A stretch of 64,000 nt of DNA from Syntrophales bacterium (GCA_963662405.2 CAXXKT010000001.1:992001-1056000), one strand, 5' to 3'. Positions 26,158-35,513 are shown, counted from the first letter of the stretch. The notes: generated by a model from the sequence alone, not told the origin. Made by a program: numbers and translations.

Positions 26158-26428
26158 GAGAAATGAGAGGACCTCACAACGACGGGGGATTCCCCTCGCG
26201 CCGTCGACTGAATCGCCTCCGGGGCCACCGGATCAGTGTCCGCCTGTACTCGACGAACCGGACACCCGGCGGACCTCTCCTCCCCTCTTCCATAGGCCTT
26301 TTCTATGGGTGGCGGACTGGTTATAGCTTATTTGCATTTGACTAATTCATCGTTTTTACGTAGACCTACAACAATAATGGATGAGGGACACACAGGAGAG
26401 GAAAAGGGTGCAAAGCCGGTCACATCGC

Positions 26429-27601
26429 ATGAACGGGATCATATACATGGATAACGCAGCTACGTCTTGGCCGAAGCCGAAGGAGACCCTTGCGGCGATG
26501 GCGGAGTTTGCGCAGAACGTCGGGGCGAACCCGGGGCGCTCAGGGCACCGCCTTTCCGTCGATGCCGGGCGCGAGGTCTTGAATACACGAGAGGCCGTTG
26601 CGCAGCTTTTTGGGATTCCCAATCCCCTTCGGGTAATCTTCACCAAAAACGCGACGGAAGGACTCAATATTGCCATCCGCGGCCTCCTGAAGCCAGGAGA
26701 CCATGTCATCGCCTCGGGGATGGAACACAACTCGGTCATGCGGCCCCTCCGGGACATGGAGAAACAAGGGGTTGCCCTGTCGGTTGTTCCCTGTTCCCCC
26801 GCCGGGGAATTGGACCCTGATGATGTCAAGCGGCACATACAAAAAAACACGCGGGCGATCTGTCTCACCCACGCCTCCAATGTCACCGGGACCCTGATGC
26901 CGATCTCCGAGATCGGACGGATCGCCCGGGAGCGGGGGATTATATTTTGCGTCGATGCGGCACAGACCGCCGGTGTCGTCCCGATCGACGTGAAGGTTAT
27001 GTCCATAGACCTCCTGGCATTCACCGGTCACAAATCCCTCTTCGGGCCCCAAGGGACGGGTGGTCTGTATCTGGTTGAGGGGTTGGAGAAAGATATCGAA
27101 CCGATCATGACGGGTGGCACCGGCAGCAGATCCGAATCGGAAGAGCAACCGGTCTTTCTCCCCGACCGGTACGAGTCGGGCACCCCCAACTCGATCGGTC
27201 TTGCCGGTCTCGGTGCCGGTATCCGCTTTATCCGGTCTGTCGGGATCGAGGCGATACGGGACAAAGAACGCGCATTGACGGCGATGCTGCTCGAAGGCTT
27301 CCATGCCATGCCGGAAGTCACCCTGTACGGGTGCGGCGACGCCGCACGGCAGACGGCGGTGGTCTCCTTCACGATTCCGGGGATGAGCACCGCCGAGGTT
27401 GCCATGATCCTTGATGAAGAATTTTGTATCATGTCCCGACCGGGGCTTCAGTGCGCGCCGGCCGCCCACCGGACGATCGGGACTTTTCCCATGGGGACGG
27501 TGCGGCTCAGCCTGGGATATTTTCTTGATGAAGACAACATCCGAACCGCCCTTGCGGCTGTTGACCGGATTATTTCTACGAAGAAAGGAGTTGCCTCATG
27601 A
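26429..27601 (+). CDS. Class V PLP enzyme, cysteine desulfurase / selenocysteine lyase family
   Basis: YMDNAATSWPKP, EHNSVMRP, DAAQ, FTGHKSL (PLP Lys), RPGLQCAP (catalytic Cys). Confidence 0.9.
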   Translation: MNGIIYMDNAATSWPKPKETLAAMAEFAQNVGANPGRSGHRLSVDAGREVLNTREAVAQLFGIPNPLRVIFTKNATEGLNIAIRGLLKPGDHVIASGMEHNSVMRPLRDMEKQGVALSVVPCSPAGELDPDDVKRHIQKNTRAICLTHASNVTGTLMPISEIGRIARERGIIFCVDAAQTAGVVPIDVKVMSIDLLAFTGHKSLFGPQGTGGLYLVEGLEKDIEPIMTGGTGSRSESEEQPVFLPDRYESGTPNSIGLAGLGAGIRFIRSVGIEAIRDKERALTAMLLEGFHAMPEVTLYGCGDAARQTAVVSFTIPGMSTAEVAMILDEEFCIMSRPGLQCAPAAHRTIGTFPMGTVRLSLGYFLDEDNIRTALAAVDRIISTKKGVAS

Positions 27602-28179
27602 TGCAGGAAATAGATGCGCGGGGGTTTGCCTGTCCCCAACCCGTCATCATGACCAAGAAGGCGATCGAGGAAGGGGACGATTGTGTCGTTATCGTCGATA
27701 ACGAAGCGGCCCGGGACAATGTGTGCCGGATGGCGAAGAGCCGGGGGTGTGAAACGAGAGTGGAGGAACGGAACGGTGCTTTCCGTATCCACGTGACCCG
27801 AGAGGAAGACCGGAAACCGGGAGAAAAACCTCTTCCCACCGTAGGTCCCACGGTGGTAGTCTTTCCCTGTGACTGTATGGGGAAGGGAGACGATGAACTG
27901 GGGGCGGTCTTGGTACGGGCATTCATACACACGCTGGGTGAGATCTCCCCGAGGCCCGACGGATTGATCTTCTTCAACGCGGGGGTCAAACTGACAGCGG
28001 ACGGCTCAGCGGTCATCGAAGACCTCCGCGCCCTGGAGGAGACGGGAATTCGTATCTTGGTCTGCGGGACCTGTCTCGACTTCTTCGGCCTCAAGGATAA
28101 ACTCCGGGCCGGCATGATATCCAATATGTACGATATCGCCGAGACGATGTTGTCCGCGGGGAGGATCGTCAGGATATGA
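27598..28179 (+). CDS. yedF: Selenium metabolism protein YedF (SirA/TusA + DsrE domains)
   Basis: DARGFACPQPV, MGKGDDELG, CGTCLDFF, SNMYDI; ATGA overlap with the upstream gene. Confidence 0.9.
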   Translation: MMQEIDARGFACPQPVIMTKKAIEEGDDCVVIVDNEAARDNVCRMAKSRGCETRVEERNGAFRIHVTREEDRKPGEKPLPTVGPTVVVFPCDCMGKGDDELGAVLVRAFIHTLGEISPRPDGLIFFNAGVKLTADGSAVIEDLRALEETGIRILVCGTCLDFFGLKDKLRAGMISNMYDIAETMLSAGRIVRI

Positions 28180-28406
28180 CGGATACGCAGTCCTTCTGGG
28201 TGATTCTCTTCGATTCGACAAGCGAGGCCCTCCTCGCCGAAAAACTGTTGAAAGCAACACCTGTTCCCCACAAGGTGATCCCGGTTCCCCGCAAAATCAG
28301 TTCTGATTGCGGTGTCTGTATCCGATTTTCAGCCCCGGATATCGAGCGGGTCGGCGCGATCCTCGACGGGGCCGTCCCCTTTCGCGCGATCACCCCCCTT
28401 GAATAA
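28176..28406 (+). CDS. DUF3343 putative Se/S carrier protein
   Basis: ILFDSTSEALLAEK, IPVPRKISSDCGVCIRF; ATGA overlap. Confidence 0.85.
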   Translation: MTDTQSFWVILFDSTSEALLAEKLLKATPVPHKVIPVPRKISSDCGVCIRFSAPDIERVGAILDGAVPFRAITPLE

Positions 28407-28413
28407 TTCCTGG

Positions 28414-28461
28414 TTGACAAGGCAAAAACGGTGCTTATTATATAATCGTATATTGACGATA
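28414..28461 (+). promoter_or_regulatory. Promoter with ArsR-type operator
   Basis: TTGACA 28414, TATTAT/TATAAT 28436-28446, followed by inverted repeat ATCGT-ATATTG-ACGAT 28445-28460. Confidence 0.65.
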
Positions 28462-28567
28462 GGCGATATCTGTGATAGTCCCCTCCGACGATATGAGGCA
28501 ATCAAGGCCTGGCAGGGAATTTTTTACCATATGAGAACTCTAAAATGGATAGGGGAATAAGCGATCG

Positions 28568-28933
28568 ATGGCACAAGGTGGATGTATCGGTGGAGCGCGT
28601 TTTGTAGATCTTGAAGAAATTGAAGGAATAGACCGAAAGACGTGCACGGAAATACTGGCTCGTCTCTCAAAGGGGCTGGCCCACCCCGCGCGGATCGAAA
28701 TTATCCGGATGCTGTACCATAAACCTCCGGAGAAAAAGTATATCTGCTCGGATATTGTCGCTGTACTTCCCCTGGCTCAGGCCAGTGTGTCCCAGCACCT
28801 GAAAATACTGAAGGAGACCGGCTGGGTGTACGGAGAAGTTGACGGCCCGCGCGTCGTATGTAATCTTGTGGGGAATATTGTTGAATATTACAAAGTAGTT
28901 GTGAGGAAGGCTGTTCAGGAGAATACCATATAA
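28568..28933 (+). CDS. ArsR/SmtB family transcriptional regulator
   Basis: KGLAHPARIEII, ICSDIV, PLAQASVSQHLKILK, GEVDGPRVVC. Confidence 0.92.
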   Translation: MAQGGCIGGARFVDLEEIEGIDRKTCTEILARLSKGLAHPARIEIIRMLYHKPPEKKYICSDIVAVLPLAQASVSQHLKILKETGWVYGEVDGPRVVCNLVGNIVEYYKVVVRKAVQENTI

Positions 28934-28948
28934 AAGGAGAAAGAAAAT

Positions 28949-29269
28949 ATGTTTACAGTTTCGGAAAATGCACAAGAGATGATCAAAAAAGTCCTCGAAT
29001 CGCGGGACGAGAAACTCCCGATCCGCTTGTTTTACTCCGGAGGCGGGTGAGCCGGCCCATCGCTGGCGATGTCTCTGGATGAGACACGGGACGGAGATAA
29101 GACGTTTCAGGAAGACGGGATCACGTTCACTATAGATGAGCAGTTGTTCGAAGAGGCAAAACCGATCAATATCGATTATATCGATTCGGTCGGAGGAGCC
29201 GGCTTTTCCATCACTTCAAACCTGTCGGTTGGCGCCGCGTGCAGCACGTGTGGTGGAGGGTGTAGCTGA
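28949..29269 (+). CDS. HesB/IscA-like selenoprotein (Sec at codon 34)
   Basis: AAGGAG RBS and ATG 28949; reads MFTVSENAQEMIKKVLESRDEKLPIRLFYSGGG-TGA(29048-50)-AGPSLAMSLDE...GAACSTCGGGCS. UGA sits at the conserved IscA Cys position; hairpin downstream; selA in window. Confidence 0.9.
29051..29090 (+). promoter_or_regulatory. Candidate bacterial SECIS element
   Basis: Hairpin UGUCUC-UGGAU-GAGACA 29070-29086 with G in the loop, 25 nt after UGA; alternative CAUCGC/GCGAUG hairpin 29058-29071. Confidence 0.65.
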
Positions 29270-29481
29270 TATCGGCATGGCTGAAACCGACCAATTATGT
29301 CTCATGACGACCACCTGCTCCAACCGGGAAGAAATCGGCCTGGTGCCGACAGCCCGATGGCGGCGGGTGGTCGAGTGAGAGGGCTGTGCTCCGGAAATCA
29401 TCCATATCCTCTGCACACGTGCAGGGGAAAGGCCGTTCGGAAGGAACGGAGACCGTTTTTCCAGAGGGGGGGGTATACCGG

Positions 29482-30717
29482 ATGCACGTTGTCATATATA
29501 TACTGAAAGAAATAGTCTTTTTTTTCAATGAAATAGCGATCTATCTTCTCTTCGGGTTTATTGTCGCCGGTGTTCTCCATGTCCTGTTTCCCGAATCGAT
29601 CATCCGGCGCCATCTCGGTCATAATTCATTTCTCTCCGTCATGAAGTCGACCCTTTTCGGCATTCCGCTCCCGCTCTGCTCGTGCGGAGTGGTGCCCATG
29701 GCGGCTTCACTGAAGAACAGCGGGGCCTCGAAGGGAGCCACCGTCTCATTTCTCATTGCGACCCCGCAGGTTGGTGCCGACAGTTTTATGATCACCTATT
29801 CCCTGATGGGGTGGGTCTTTGCCCTGTTCCGTATTGTCGCTTCGTTGGTGACGGCCCTGGCAGCGGGTATCGTGGTCAATATCATCGGGAGAAAGGAACG
29901 CGATCAACCGGAAGGTCTGGTGTCATGCGTCAACGGGTCCGACAGCTTTGCCGGGCGCCTGAGGTCGATTGTCGGGTATGTGGAATACGACCTGCTCGGT
30001 TCCATTGCCAATGCGCTTCTCGGAGGCCTGATCATTGCCGGGACCATAACGGCCTTCATTCCTGCCGGTTTCTTTGAGCGGTATCTCGGGAACAATTTTC
30101 TCTCGATGGTCCTGATGCTTGTTGTGGGAATTCCACTGTATGTGTGCGCCGCAGCCTCGACGCCCATCGCCGCATCCCTGGTCATGAAAGGCATTTCACC
30201 GGGGGCGGCCCTTGTTTTTCTCCTCACCGGTCCCGCGACCAATGCCATCACGATCACAACCGTCCTGAAGGTGTTGGGCAAAAAATCCACGGTCGTGTAC
30301 CTCGCGGCCATCGCCATCGTTAGTCTGGCCCTGGGCTACCTTCTGAATATCCTGACGGATTATTTCGGTTTTCAGAATATCATGATGCTTCATGATCATG
30401 GAGTGCTCCCGCCGTGGCTGAAGATCGGCGGGTCGGTCATACTGGCCCTCATGATCGGGTGGTATTATCTGAAGGTAAAGGTCTTGGACAAATCACGAAA
30501 GGAAGAGGCAATGGACAGTCAAAAAATAAGCCTGCCAGTTCGGGGTATGACCTGTATGCATTGTGCGGGAACGGTGAAAAAGGCGGTAGAATCGGTAGCC
30601 GGAACATCAAATGTCACGGTTCTCTTGGATGAAAACAGGGTGTCATTTGCACTAGAGACTGCCGACGACATTGAAAAAGTGAAACAGGCAATTGAACGTG
30701 CCGGTTATGATGTCTGA
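29482..30717 (+). CDS. DUF318/ArsP-like permease (SO_0444 type) with C-terminal HMA domain
   Basis: GIPLPLCSCGVVP, SFLIATPQ, PLYVCAAAS, LVFLLTGPATN; C-terminal GMTCMHC. Confidence 0.88.
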   Translation: MHVVIYILKEIVFFFNEIAIYLLFGFIVAGVLHVLFPESIIRRHLGHNSFLSVMKSTLFGIPLPLCSCGVVPMAASLKNSGASKGATVSFLIATPQVGADSFMITYSLMGWVFALFRIVASLVTALAAGIVVNIIGRKERDQPEGLVSCVNGSDSFAGRLRSIVGYVEYDLLGSIANALLGGLIIAGTITAFIPAGFFERYLGNNFLSMVLMLVVGIPLYVCAAASTPIAASLVMKGISPGAALVFLLTGPATNAITITTVLKVLGKKSTVVYLAAIAIVSLALGYLLNILTDYFGFQNIMMLHDHGVLPPWLKIGGSVILALMIGWYYLKVKVLDKSRKEEAMDSQKISLPVRGMTCMHCAGTVKKAVESVAGTSNVTVLLDENRVSFALETADDIEKVKQAIERAGYDV

Positions 30718-30798
30718 AGAATAAGCGATTGAACGTAAAAGCGTTTCGATTGCTTTTCCCTCCCGAACCCTGTCGGGCCGAGCCCATTTGTGGGGTTG

Positions 30799-30945
30799 TC
30801 ATATATAGGGGAGGAAAAAGAGGCTGATGATCGCGACCACAAGGATAATGACGCTGGCGAAGAATACCTCCAGATACGCGTCGCCCTGTGAAGAATATTC
30901 ATCCCAGTCGGTATCTTCAATATAGTGTTTGAATTTGAATAACAT
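30799..30945 (-). CDS. 48-aa single-pass small membrane protein
   Basis: Below the ORF cutoff; GGAG RBS; MLFKFKHYIEDTDWDEYSSQGDAYLEVFFASVIILVVAIISLFFLPYI. Confidence 0.6.
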   Translation of the reverse strand: MLFKFKHYIEDTDWDEYSSQGDAYLEVFFASVIILVVAIISLFFLPYI

Positions 30946-31257
30946 ATTTTTCTCCAATCACAAAAACTCATCCGAATACCTCCGGGCGCGTGGAATAAAA
31001 CGCTCCGGTACCCTTTGTATCGGTAGAACCGAGGACAAACTTCAATGAGTGTCCCATTCTTCACTGCTGCGGTTGAGCAATAACGGCGCCGGTCGGTTCC
31101 TGGTATGGTGGTGTATGGGGTTTCCGCGTTTTGGCATCGCCGCGATGAAGGAAGCGGCGCGTCAATATGTCGAGGTGCGTCACAATGACATGCCAACGCA
31201 GGCACTTCAAAAATCCGGTTGATATGCATCCTGGCTGACGGGTACAGACCCCCATGA

Positions 31258-31668
31258 ACCAAGAGCAAGGGGGGTGGGGAAATACTCAATATTGCCTCCA
31301 TCGGCGGGGGCATGCCCCTCGATTTCCTCGCCTGCTATGATGTCAGCAAGGCAGGAGTAATAGCACTGACCCAGGCAATAGCGATGTACATGGCCCGCTC
31401 CAACGTCAATGTCAATTCCCTCTGCCCCGGTATCATCAAGACCGAAATGGGGGTGAACAGGGTACACCTGCTCAGTGCTTCCCATCTTGTCTTTCGCGGG
31501 ATGGATTCCGAGGAGGTTTCCAATACCCCGGGAAGAAATTCTCTACGCAAGCGGCCGCCCCAGACGGCCGAAGGGAGTGGAAACGACGTCGTTTTTCTCG
31601 CTTCCGATGGGGGTAAAGAGATCATGGGTCAGGGGATCAACGGCTGCGGGGGGATGTATCTCAGCTGA
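31258..31668 (+). pseudogene. SDR oxidoreductase C-terminal remnant
   Basis: GEILNIASIGG, YDVSK (YxxxK), NVNSLCPGIIKT, FLASD..GQGIN; in-frame TGA at 31255 and no Rossmann N-terminus. Confidence 0.75.
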
Positions 31669-34535: not shown

Positions 34536-35513
34536 CACTACTGTCCCAACGTTATAATTGAAAAGTGCTATAACAATATGAAAGTAAACATTATTCAGCG
34601 AAAAATGTTATTAATCGATTTGAAATTTTCTCTTCCTGAATGTCAAACTCCTGCATCAATTAAGCAGGAGATGACATATGAACTCAGGAAAAACGATCTT
34701 TTCGCAACTAATGGAATTTTTTCCTCTCCACGAATTTCGCACATGTGTCGCGCGATACAACGGCAATTACAAAATCAAAAGCTTCTCTTGCCGGGACCAA
34801 TTTCTCTGCATGGCCTTTGCCCCGCTTACTTACCGCGAAAGCCTGAGGGATATTCAGGCATGCCTCAGGGGAACGAGACACAAACTCGACCATATGGGCA
34901 TCCGTGGGAACGTCTCCCGCAATACCCTGGCCAATGCCAGCAAGGTCAGAGACTGGCGCATCTACTGCGACTTCGCCCAGGTGCTCATCGGAAAGGCCAG
35001 GAGACTGTACTCCCACACCATCGACAAATCAACAGGGATTCAATGCGACTAAACCATTGTGCCCCAGAACTTCTATGCTCAAAAGAACTATCCGGAAAAA
35101 CTACGGAGAATCAGGTATCTCGATGTGAATACCAACAAAAGACTGGTCTTTCTCATCAACAATTTTACGCTTCCGGCAAAAACTATCGCAGAGCATCTAC
35201 CGATGCCGGTGGCACGTAGAACTCTTCTTCAAATGGATCAAACAACATCTGAGAATCAAGTCCTTTTACGGTACCTCGGAGAATGCTATAAAAACACAGA
35301 TCTGGATTGCAATTTCCGTATATGTTCTGGTAGCTATTATCAAGAAGGATTTGAAACTGGACCACAGTTTCTACACAATTTTACAGGTTTTGAGCGTCAC
35401 GCTTTTTGAAAAAGGACCAATTTTACAAGTCCGTACGAATAACGATTACATAAACCCAACCCCTGCCTCTTCTAACCAGCCGAATCTATGCGGGTAATGT
35501 TGGGACAGTAGTG
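34536..35513 (+). mobile_element. Internally deleted IS4-family element (978 bp)
   Basis: TIRs CACTACTGTCCCAACGTTA (34536-54) and TAATGTTGGGACAGTAGTG (35495-513), 18/19 match; no target duplication seen. Confidence 0.92.
34678..35497 (+). pseudogene. IS4 transposase pseudogene (DUF4372 + DDE remnant)
   Basis: MNSGKTIFSQL..LTYRESLRDI; premature TAA at 35050; YPEKLRRI; frameshift into RWHVELFFKWIKQHLRIKSFYGTSENA. Confidence 0.92.

Follow-up and report, generated by a model that had tools for sequence, protein, structure and literature searches.

A gene for a HesB-like selenoprotein placed between an ArsR-type repressor and a metal permease raises the question of whether these genes form one regulated unit and, if so, what that unit responds to. 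The locus lies at positions 28414 to 30717 of a 64,000-nt stretch of Syntrophales bacterium DNA (GCA_963662405.2 CAXXKT010000001.1:992001-1056000), which in its entirety is referred to here as the window; the 3.8-Mb genome containing it is labelled G000. The locus is real and is conserved within a limited group. Based upon the results described below, it is probably an autoregulated stress operon for soft metals or metalloids, which has been partly eroded. Shown directly are the genes and the purifying selection upon them, the signals for selenocysteine (Sec) recoding, the original order of the genes, the lineage of ArsR, and the co-occurrence of the operator with ArsR.

Gene content of the locus and the Sec-containing HesB protein

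The locus, all genes of which are on the plus strand, begins with a sigma-70-type promoter (28414..28441; TTGACA at 28414-28419, a spacer of 16 and TATTAT at 28436-28441; 11 of 12 matches), and an alternative TATAAT box is present at 28441-28446. Overlying the expected transcription start is the palindrome ATCGT-ATATTG-ACGAT (28445..28460), i.e. ATCGT-N6-ACGAT, the predicted ArsR operator, with an extra CGAT half-site 3' of it (about 28463-28468). It is followed by arsR (28568..28933; PF01022 30.8 bits, cut-off 22), encoding an ArsR/SmtB repressor, and by hesB(U) (28949..29269; NF038090 106.4 bits, cut-off 85), which starts 15 bp after the arsR stop and encodes an IscA/HesB-like selenoprotein of 106 aa. 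The permease gene (29482..30717) specifies a protein of the SO_0444 family in the ArsP/DUF318 superfamily (NF033936 357 bits, cut-off 300; PF03773, which we take to be the former DUF318, 158.7 bits) with a CSC motif at C66-C68 and an HMA domain (PF00403), containing GMTCMHC, fused at its C-terminus (about 30535-30711, residues 352-410). The -35 box begins 8 bp 3' of the stop of a DUF3343 gene belonging to a selenium (Se)-relay cluster (26381..28406, plus strand), which consists of an SclA/CsdA-like desulfurase (csd), YedF and DUF3343. The first-pass annotation of this DNA, made from the sequence alone, had described the same promoter and palindrome, the Sec-HesB gene 15 bp after arsR, a DUF318-type permease with an HMA domain, and the position directly after the Se-relay operon, and all of these are confirmed; however, it overlooked the absence of three of the four cysteines of the parent group from this ArsR, and a cutA pseudogene (29277..29460, plus strand), which fills the 212-bp gap between hesB and the permease gene. 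The ATG at 29482 matches the N-termini of permease homologs, and an earlier GTG (29386) was rejected as the permease start because the homologs begin at the position of this ATG.

In hesB(U), a TGA codon (29048-29050) stands in frame at codon 34 within the motif GGGUAGP, and the protein ends in a cysteine-rich tail, CSTCGGGCS (C98, C101, C105). A hairpin resembling a bacterial Sec insertion sequence (SECIS), TGTCTC-TGGAT-GAGACA, is located at 29070..29086 on the plus strand. The gene-order survey covered 41 related genomes; each of the 33 HesB matches above the cut-off in these genomes contains one TGA, all 33 proteins share the Cys-rich tail, and for 32 of the 33 genes a SECIS-like hairpin with GG in its loop is predicted. 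One stem position of this hairpin varies on both sides (G-C in 16, T-G in 9, G-T in 4, T-A in 2, A-T in 1 and unpaired in 1 of the 33). The genome also possesses selA (within the window), selB, the tRNA-Sec gene (selC) and selD. Incorporation of Sec at position 34 is thus a well-supported prediction, and natural Cys forms of HesB are found in loci L067 and L134. The assembled selD is interrupted by a frameshift at a run of G (G000:C3:552135-553065, L262), but one short-read contig (depth 4.1) is without the additional base and has the gene in frame; a broken selD was therefore rejected, the split being probably an assembly error. The final TGA of hesB was likewise rejected as a second Sec codon, since the relatives have TAA, TAG or TGA at that place. 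The ratio of nonsynonymous to synonymous substitution rates (dN/dS), estimated from at most two orthologs per gene with csd as the control, is about 0.08 for hesB, about 0.13-0.20 for arsR, about 0.12-0.14 for the permease and about 0.12 for csd, indicating purifying selection on the three genes of the locus.

Specificity of the palindrome for one group of ArsR proteins

If the palindrome is the operator of this ArsR, then it should accompany related ArsR proteins elsewhere. The exact pattern occurs three times in the 3.8-Mb genome, and hence by itself it is within chance; it is established by its conservation. A scan of metagenomes gave 174 ArsR loci, of which the best 80 were analysed, the per-locus counts leaving out L108 and L168, where the core was not found; the 78 scored ArsRs comprise 62 with a CxC...CxC arrangement and 16 with fewer cysteines (reduced-Cys). 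The palindrome is exact upstream of arsR, or upstream of arsM where arsM leads, in 64 of the 69 loci where this could be tested (41 of 45 once these were de-duplicated at 95%), and the remaining five differ by one mismatch each; among the reduced-Cys loci it is exact in 15 of 15. All 66 exact matches in the 354,212 bases fall inside promoter intervals. Three further members of the ArsR group, in L254-L256, also have the palindrome, and a matrix scan of the whole G000 genome gave one strong site, that of the window (42.6 bits, the next being 11.7). The -35 and -10 boxes align across relatives, including three loci without arsR.

For an independent test, 301 genomes of the phylum were searched for other hgcA matches; there were 92, of which the top 80 were taken. 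The exact motif is present in all six regions with an upstream four-Cys ArsR versus none of the other 74; one of the six ArsRs (L237, 79 bits, threshold 90) was counted by its cysteines, and applying the threshold strictly gives 5 of 5 and 1 of 75. The six positive regions represent four families, with three of the regions coming from a single genus, and the upstream DNA is short in a few regions. Among genome loci with ArsR, the palindrome is exact in six of eight and has one mismatch in two, and it is found in none of nine hesB loci lacking ArsR. In five loci opened out of 157 plasmid records, all of them among ars-type genes, it is exact in two, has one mismatch in two and is absent in one. 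These results indicate that the palindrome is very probably the operator of this ArsR group. It can serve as a sequence marker for ArsR-controlled hgcAB loci (6 of 80 sampled), whose ArsR type is linked to mercury methylation.

The hgcAB genes of the window's own genome are at C2:138105-139498, behind a MarR-family gene (region G000:C2:137500-139500; L173:5502-7500), and their control by the window ArsR was rejected, as no matrix site lies near them and the upstream gene is of the MarR type. Of the 80 hgcA regions sampled, 14 have an upstream MarR homolog, against 6 with ArsR. In another locus (L043:1218-5242), marR-hgcA-hgcB is directly followed on one strand by hesB-cutA-permease.

Ancestral gene order and its erosion

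The 5' end of the cutA pseudogene (29277-29335; nhmmer E 2.8e-6) retains about 19 recognisable N-terminal codons; beyond it there is a premature stop (29376-29378), internal sequence has been deleted and the 3' part has decayed, so that a remnant of 33 codons stands against an intact open reading frame (ORF) of 107 aa. The 3' part is weak: its score is reached by 1 of 500 shuffles for two of the six templates and by 11 of 500 for one, and is not significant for the other three. The intact CutA proteins of relatives themselves score 93-102 bits with NF041095, below its cut-off of 120. Two other explanations of the gap were rejected, viz. that it is a structured non-coding RNA or repeat (there is no Rfam match and no second genomic copy), and that the permease was recently inserted into cutA (loci with intact hesB-cutA-permease exist, and both ends of cutA can be traced in the window).

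In the same genus, hesB is present in six of the seven relatives, directly followed in all six by an intact cutA and preceded in five by arsR. A permease scan over species genomes gave 52 loci, the closest ten at 73-77% and three of these ten being repeats of loci already in the set. Among these closest loci the order is hesB-cutA-permease (L043-L045), hesB-permease (L046-L048, and L067 with a Cys-HesB and a broken permease), arsM-arsR-hesB-permease (L049), or arsR-permease with remnants of hesB (L041, L042). All that is left of cutA in L042, L047 and L049 is a scar in which its start and end are fused. The complete order arsR-hesB-cutA-permease was found in 5 of the 80 ArsR loci (three after de-duplication), and three of these five stand behind arsM. 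The neighbourhood survey proposed in the first-pass annotation, for ArsR with HesB(U) and a DUF318 permease, recovered the trio in L049, L101, L112, L116, L118 and L136, but the trio is not obligatory: none of the six same-genus relatives with hesB has an adjoining permease, and G000 is the only one of the 41 related genomes with arsR, hesB and the permease together. The simplest history consistent with these arrangements is that an ancestral unit (arsM)-arsR-hesB(U)-cutA-permease was eroded piecemeal and that the window contains one eroded copy; as judged from the gene orders, the conserved unit is this five-gene order and not the trio.

The genes hcp (presumably for the hybrid-cluster protein) and one of a nitrous-oxide-stimulated family recur beside hesB or the permease (L022, L044, L116, L055-L057), which hints at nitrosative or iron-sulfur (Fe-S) stress. 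A different SO_0444 permease, lacking HMA and located behind a MerR-like regulator, is found in two genomes of the same family (L038, L039).

Proposed mode of action

A-type carriers have an established role in the supply of Fe-S clusters. In the proposed mechanism, a dimer of ArsR bound to the palindrome over the transcription start would repress a transcript covering arsR, hesB(U), the pseudogene of cutA and the permease; a thiol-reactive ion would bind the remaining cysteines of ArsR and cause its release; the permease would then export the metal, which by analogy with Shewanella SO_0444 is most likely copper (Cu) or zinc (Zn) and which the HMA domain would collect; and HesB(U), an A-type carrier with Sec and C-terminal cysteines, would most likely help to put back the clusters that these ions had damaged. 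These steps are not equally secure. Binding of ArsR to the palindrome is highly likely, and a single transcript reaching the permease is likely. Induction by a metal or metalloid is marginally favoured, and Fe-S repair as the role of HesB(U) is plausible but falls slightly short of even. The first-pass annotation had spoken of a metal(loid)-inducible module; an ArsR-autoregulated module is indeed indicated by the manner in which the palindrome tracks an ArsR group that heads ars and hgc operons, but inducibility by metal is uncertain because the window ArsR keeps one of the four canonical cysteines. For the lost partner, CutA, binding of copper and an effect on copper resistance are described (PMC12685090). 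In favour of the proposed operon, too, G030 and G033 have second hesB(U) copies inside clusters of ars genes.

Several observations weigh against the proposed operon. In the six same-genus relatives with hesB, the permease neither adjoins hesB nor is found above the cut-off anywhere in the genome, and full-length permease homologs of 54-64% identity have neither HesB nor ArsR as a neighbour. HesB above the cut-off is present in 31 of the 41 related genomes, often with unrelated neighbours, and it is thus near-core in the order; in the window's genome HesB(U) is the only NF038090 match, a search with PF01521 being uninformative on other carriers as it missed even the known hesB. Genome searches found no acr3 and no close arsM or arsC. 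Within the remnant of cutA, just before the permease, there is a strong, long imperfect RNA hairpin (29300..29385, plus strand; z -4.0), which has no second copy in the genome and could tune read-through to the permease. In ArsR itself, three of the four sensing cysteines are replaced (Y58, V97, N99), and hence sensing may be changed or lost. Lastly, the loci are mutually related and the counts given above therefore overstate their independence.

Descent of the repressor and a possible change of its signal

The window ArsR has cysteines at positions 6, 26, 60 and 98. Compared with the four-Cys site (58, 60, 97 and 99 in window numbering) it has Y58, C60, V97 and N99 together with a new C98, and thus it lies outside the definition of that site. 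Neither does it have the alpha3 cluster of R773-type proteins (C32, C34, C37; canonically CVCDL, as we take the motif to be), the corresponding sequence being YICSD, and alpha3-type proteins form the outgroup of the tree. The protein is modelled as a winged helix (predicted local distance difference test score, pLDDT, 89), and searches of solved structures and folds returned distant ArsR/SmtB proteins only, with identities of 32% or less for those from the fold search. In the tree it is placed inside a clade (support 100/99) of 42 rows, 32 of them four-Cys, and hgcA-linked ArsRs with a cysteine spacing like that of ArsR2 from strain ND132 fall on the same side of the outgroup as this clade. 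Based on these sequence comparisons, the window ArsR can be placed as a descendant of the four-Cys (ND132 ArsR2-like) group, in a reduced-cysteine branch. The group is uncommon, being found in 9 of the 301 phylum genomes at E 1e-24. A second operon in the same genome (L002, G000:C3:146500-148350) consists of a canonical alpha3-type arsR, arsP and a thioredoxin-like gene.

The genes following this ArsR group were counted as the first recognised gene within 2.3 kb, with verified reference sequences for hgcA, hgcB, arsM and acr3. For 57 four-Cys ArsRs this gene was hgcA in 18, hesB in 17, arsP and acr3 in 5 each, arsC and HMA in 1 each, and another gene in 10; for the reduced-Cys ArsRs hesB is downstream in all 16, and for the group a Sec-HesB is downstream in 33 of 73 loci. 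The repeated place of hesB behind one ArsR group, together with arsM, acr3, cutA or a Cu/Zn exporter, leads to a specific functional hypothesis for HesB-like selenoproteins. Between the four-Cys arsR and hgcA there is often an ORF of about 110 aa, DsrE-like by eye (L121, L124, L130, L137, L138, L140, L167, L190).

One of the four sensing cysteines is left in the window ArsR and the operator is kept, from which it follows that the inducer in this lineage may not be arsenic. It is a real but lesser possibility that, after the loss of arsM, the site of ArsR was rebuilt (C60 and usually C26 kept, C98 gained) for a signal other than As(III), e.g. Cu/Zn or reactive sulfur or selenium from the adjacent Csd-YedF-DUF3343 relay, by which the supply of Se would be coupled to HesB(U) synthesis. 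In accordance with this, the reduced-Cys ArsRs, inclusive of that of the window, form a single clade (100/100, 10 rows) nested among the four-Cys proteins; C60 was kept and C98 gained in 16 of 16, C26 is present in 13 of 16, C99 has been lost and C58 and C97 mostly so, with L100 and L102 as intermediates retaining C58. Further, arsM is upstream of none of the 14 reduced-Cys loci versus 22 of 44 four-Cys loci, the retention of the operator and the purifying selection on ArsR noted earlier point the same way, and the Se-relay genes csd-yedF-DUF3343 are directly upstream in 10 of the 14 reduced-Cys loci. In L131 and L256 they are instead convergent with arsR-hesB, a second arrangement tying the Se relay to HesB(U). 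However, as these ArsRs are of one lineage, the change in cysteines and the loss of arsM count as a single event; the relay is missing at 4 of the 14 loci, where DUF401 takes its place, and is a variable neighbour outside the operon core; and ArsRs with fewer cysteines on plasmids still head ars operons (L258, L260, L261). The branch and its surviving intermediates nevertheless constitute a natural series for how ArsR sensors change effector. A broader proposal, which we regard as doubtful, is that the ArsR group controlling hgcAB and arsM would regularly have the Sec-HesB in its regulon as a hitherto undescribed member with a part in metal(loid) defence, and that in this genus the repressor, with its operator kept, may have evolved a new cysteine site that senses another signal, either Cu/Zn or reactive Se/S supplied by the neighbouring selenium relay. 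If both parts hold true, HesB-like selenoproteins would have their first physiological lead, and a switch of effector could be traced in an ArsR.

Other roles for HesB(U) and the operon

HesB(U) could alternatively act as a metal(loid) scavenger or chaperone, one of the roles suggested in the first-pass annotation, in the manner of ArsD or CopZ, with Sec34 and the C-terminal cysteines binding As(III), Hg or Cu for delivery to ArsM, Acr3 or the HMA domain. The 17 of 57 four-Cys loci in which hesB follows ArsR, mostly between arsM and acr3 or a permease, would suit such a role, as would the tail common to all 33 proteins and the HesB-like orf7 in the ars1 operon of Bacillus sp. CDB3; but the same Sec and tail are also found in hesB copies outside any metal operon, and the variable partners (Acr3, SO_0444 or none) argue against a dedicated hand-over; this role is unlikely. 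That the locus is a decaying relic, with ArsR a blind autorepressor setting basal expression, hesB(U) a housekeeping Fe-S carrier using this promoter by chance and the permease a dispensable passenger, is quite unlikely. In its favour, each member has been lost somewhere (cutA in the window, L042, L047 and L049; hesB in L041, L042 and L113; the permease in L004-L009, with a remnant in L017; arsR and operator in L006, L016 and L020), HesB is widespread as noted above, and disruption of a hesB-like gene in M. maripaludis is reported without a defect in nitrogen fixation (PMC11097638). Against it, the dN/dS of arsR and the permease matches that of the csd control, the new C98 is invariant across its clade, and hesB adjoins ArsR or ars genes in several distinct branches of the HesB tree (three label changes, at least two of them forced, with weak support).

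Relationship to known systems

The closest known counterpart of the preferred autoregulated operon is the ArsR2-hgcAB system of ND132 (Pseudodesulfovibrio mercurii), whose ArsR2, with C47, C49, C86 and C88, responds to As and S-adenosylhomocysteine (bioRxiv 10.1101/2022.10.17.512643); the words "operator" and "palindrom" do not occur in the portion of this preprint available. By the published cysteine numbering, the parent group of the window ArsR has the same spacing (CxC-37-CxC), which the ArsR of one hgcA-linked locus (L232) matches exactly (Cys 26/47/49/86/88), and in the 18 of 57 loci noted above hgcA is preceded by an ArsR related to that of the window. The window ArsR differs in that a single one of the four cysteines is left and in its predicted control of hesB and the permease; the hgcAB of G000 is elsewhere, behind MarR and without the operator. 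The occurrence of ArsR beside hgcAB and arsM has been published.

The permease SO_0444 of Shewanella oneidensis is required for Zn and Cu tolerance, and its predicted regulator is a ZntR of the MerR type (PMC3219624). The window permease shares with it the family cut-off (NF033936) and the CSC motif, but differs in its ArsR and HesB(U) neighbours and in its fused C-terminal HMA domain. HesB-like selenoproteins (NF038090, TIGR01911) with a UxGP motif and SECIS, both shared by HesB(U), are known from Syntrophus and other deltaproteobacteria (PMC1794560, PMC11097638, PMC13188914), and their function is described as unclear (PMC11097638); an ArsR operator and a metal-gene context are not mentioned in the accessible portions of these three papers. 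The ars1 operon of Bacillus sp. CDB3 (arsRYCDAT-orf7-orf8) is similarly an ArsR-led operon with a HesB-like gene, orf7 (PMC4562236, PMC5481582), but its partners differ (arsC, arsD, arsA, Acr3) and the text available reports no Sec for it and assigns no role to orf7. The SAO system (bioRxiv 10.1101/2022.07.06.499078) likewise combines selenoproteins with an adjacent efflux permease of the ArsP family, SaoE, which has the CSC motif; however, the window permease is under the SaoE cut-off (175.8 versus 325 bits), no other Sao genes were seen at the window locus, and HesB and ArsR have no occurrences in the accessible portion of that paper.

As regards ars operons, no arsC, acr3/arsB or arsM is present in the locus, such genes being found beside its relatives. 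Every component belongs to a known family, and the locus would function like an ArsR metal(loid)-resistance operon, but it falls outside what defines an ars operon or the SAO system, and its ArsR outside what defines the four-Cys site. The first-pass annotation knew of no characterised operon of this composition, and a literature search, which covered few subscription papers, found no published account of this gene composition or of the operator; this statement needs to be narrowed in one respect, as the HesB-like orf7 of Bacillus CDB3 is a published case within an ars operon, without Sec or this permease. What is new here is the recurring link of Sec-HesB to this ArsR group and the rebuilt sensor of this lineage.

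Flanking sequences

Between DUF3343 and the promoter, the terminator scan and folding found no terminator, and hence read-through from the Se-relay cluster is possible. On the 3' side of the permease there is a terminator-like hairpin (30719..30758, plus strand; z -3.78) with a short T-tail, which the terminator scan did not call. Beyond it, a conserved ORF of 48 aa with a hydrophobic C-terminus (30799-30945, minus strand) converges on the operon, and its homologs (48-64% identity) are found in 14 other loci. It is followed by a 5'-truncated remnant of a short-chain dehydrogenase gene (about 31252-31668, plus strand), the full gene being present 3' of cutA in L005, and, at about 34578-35409 on the plus strand, by frameshifted ORFs which by eye have the look of a transposase remnant.

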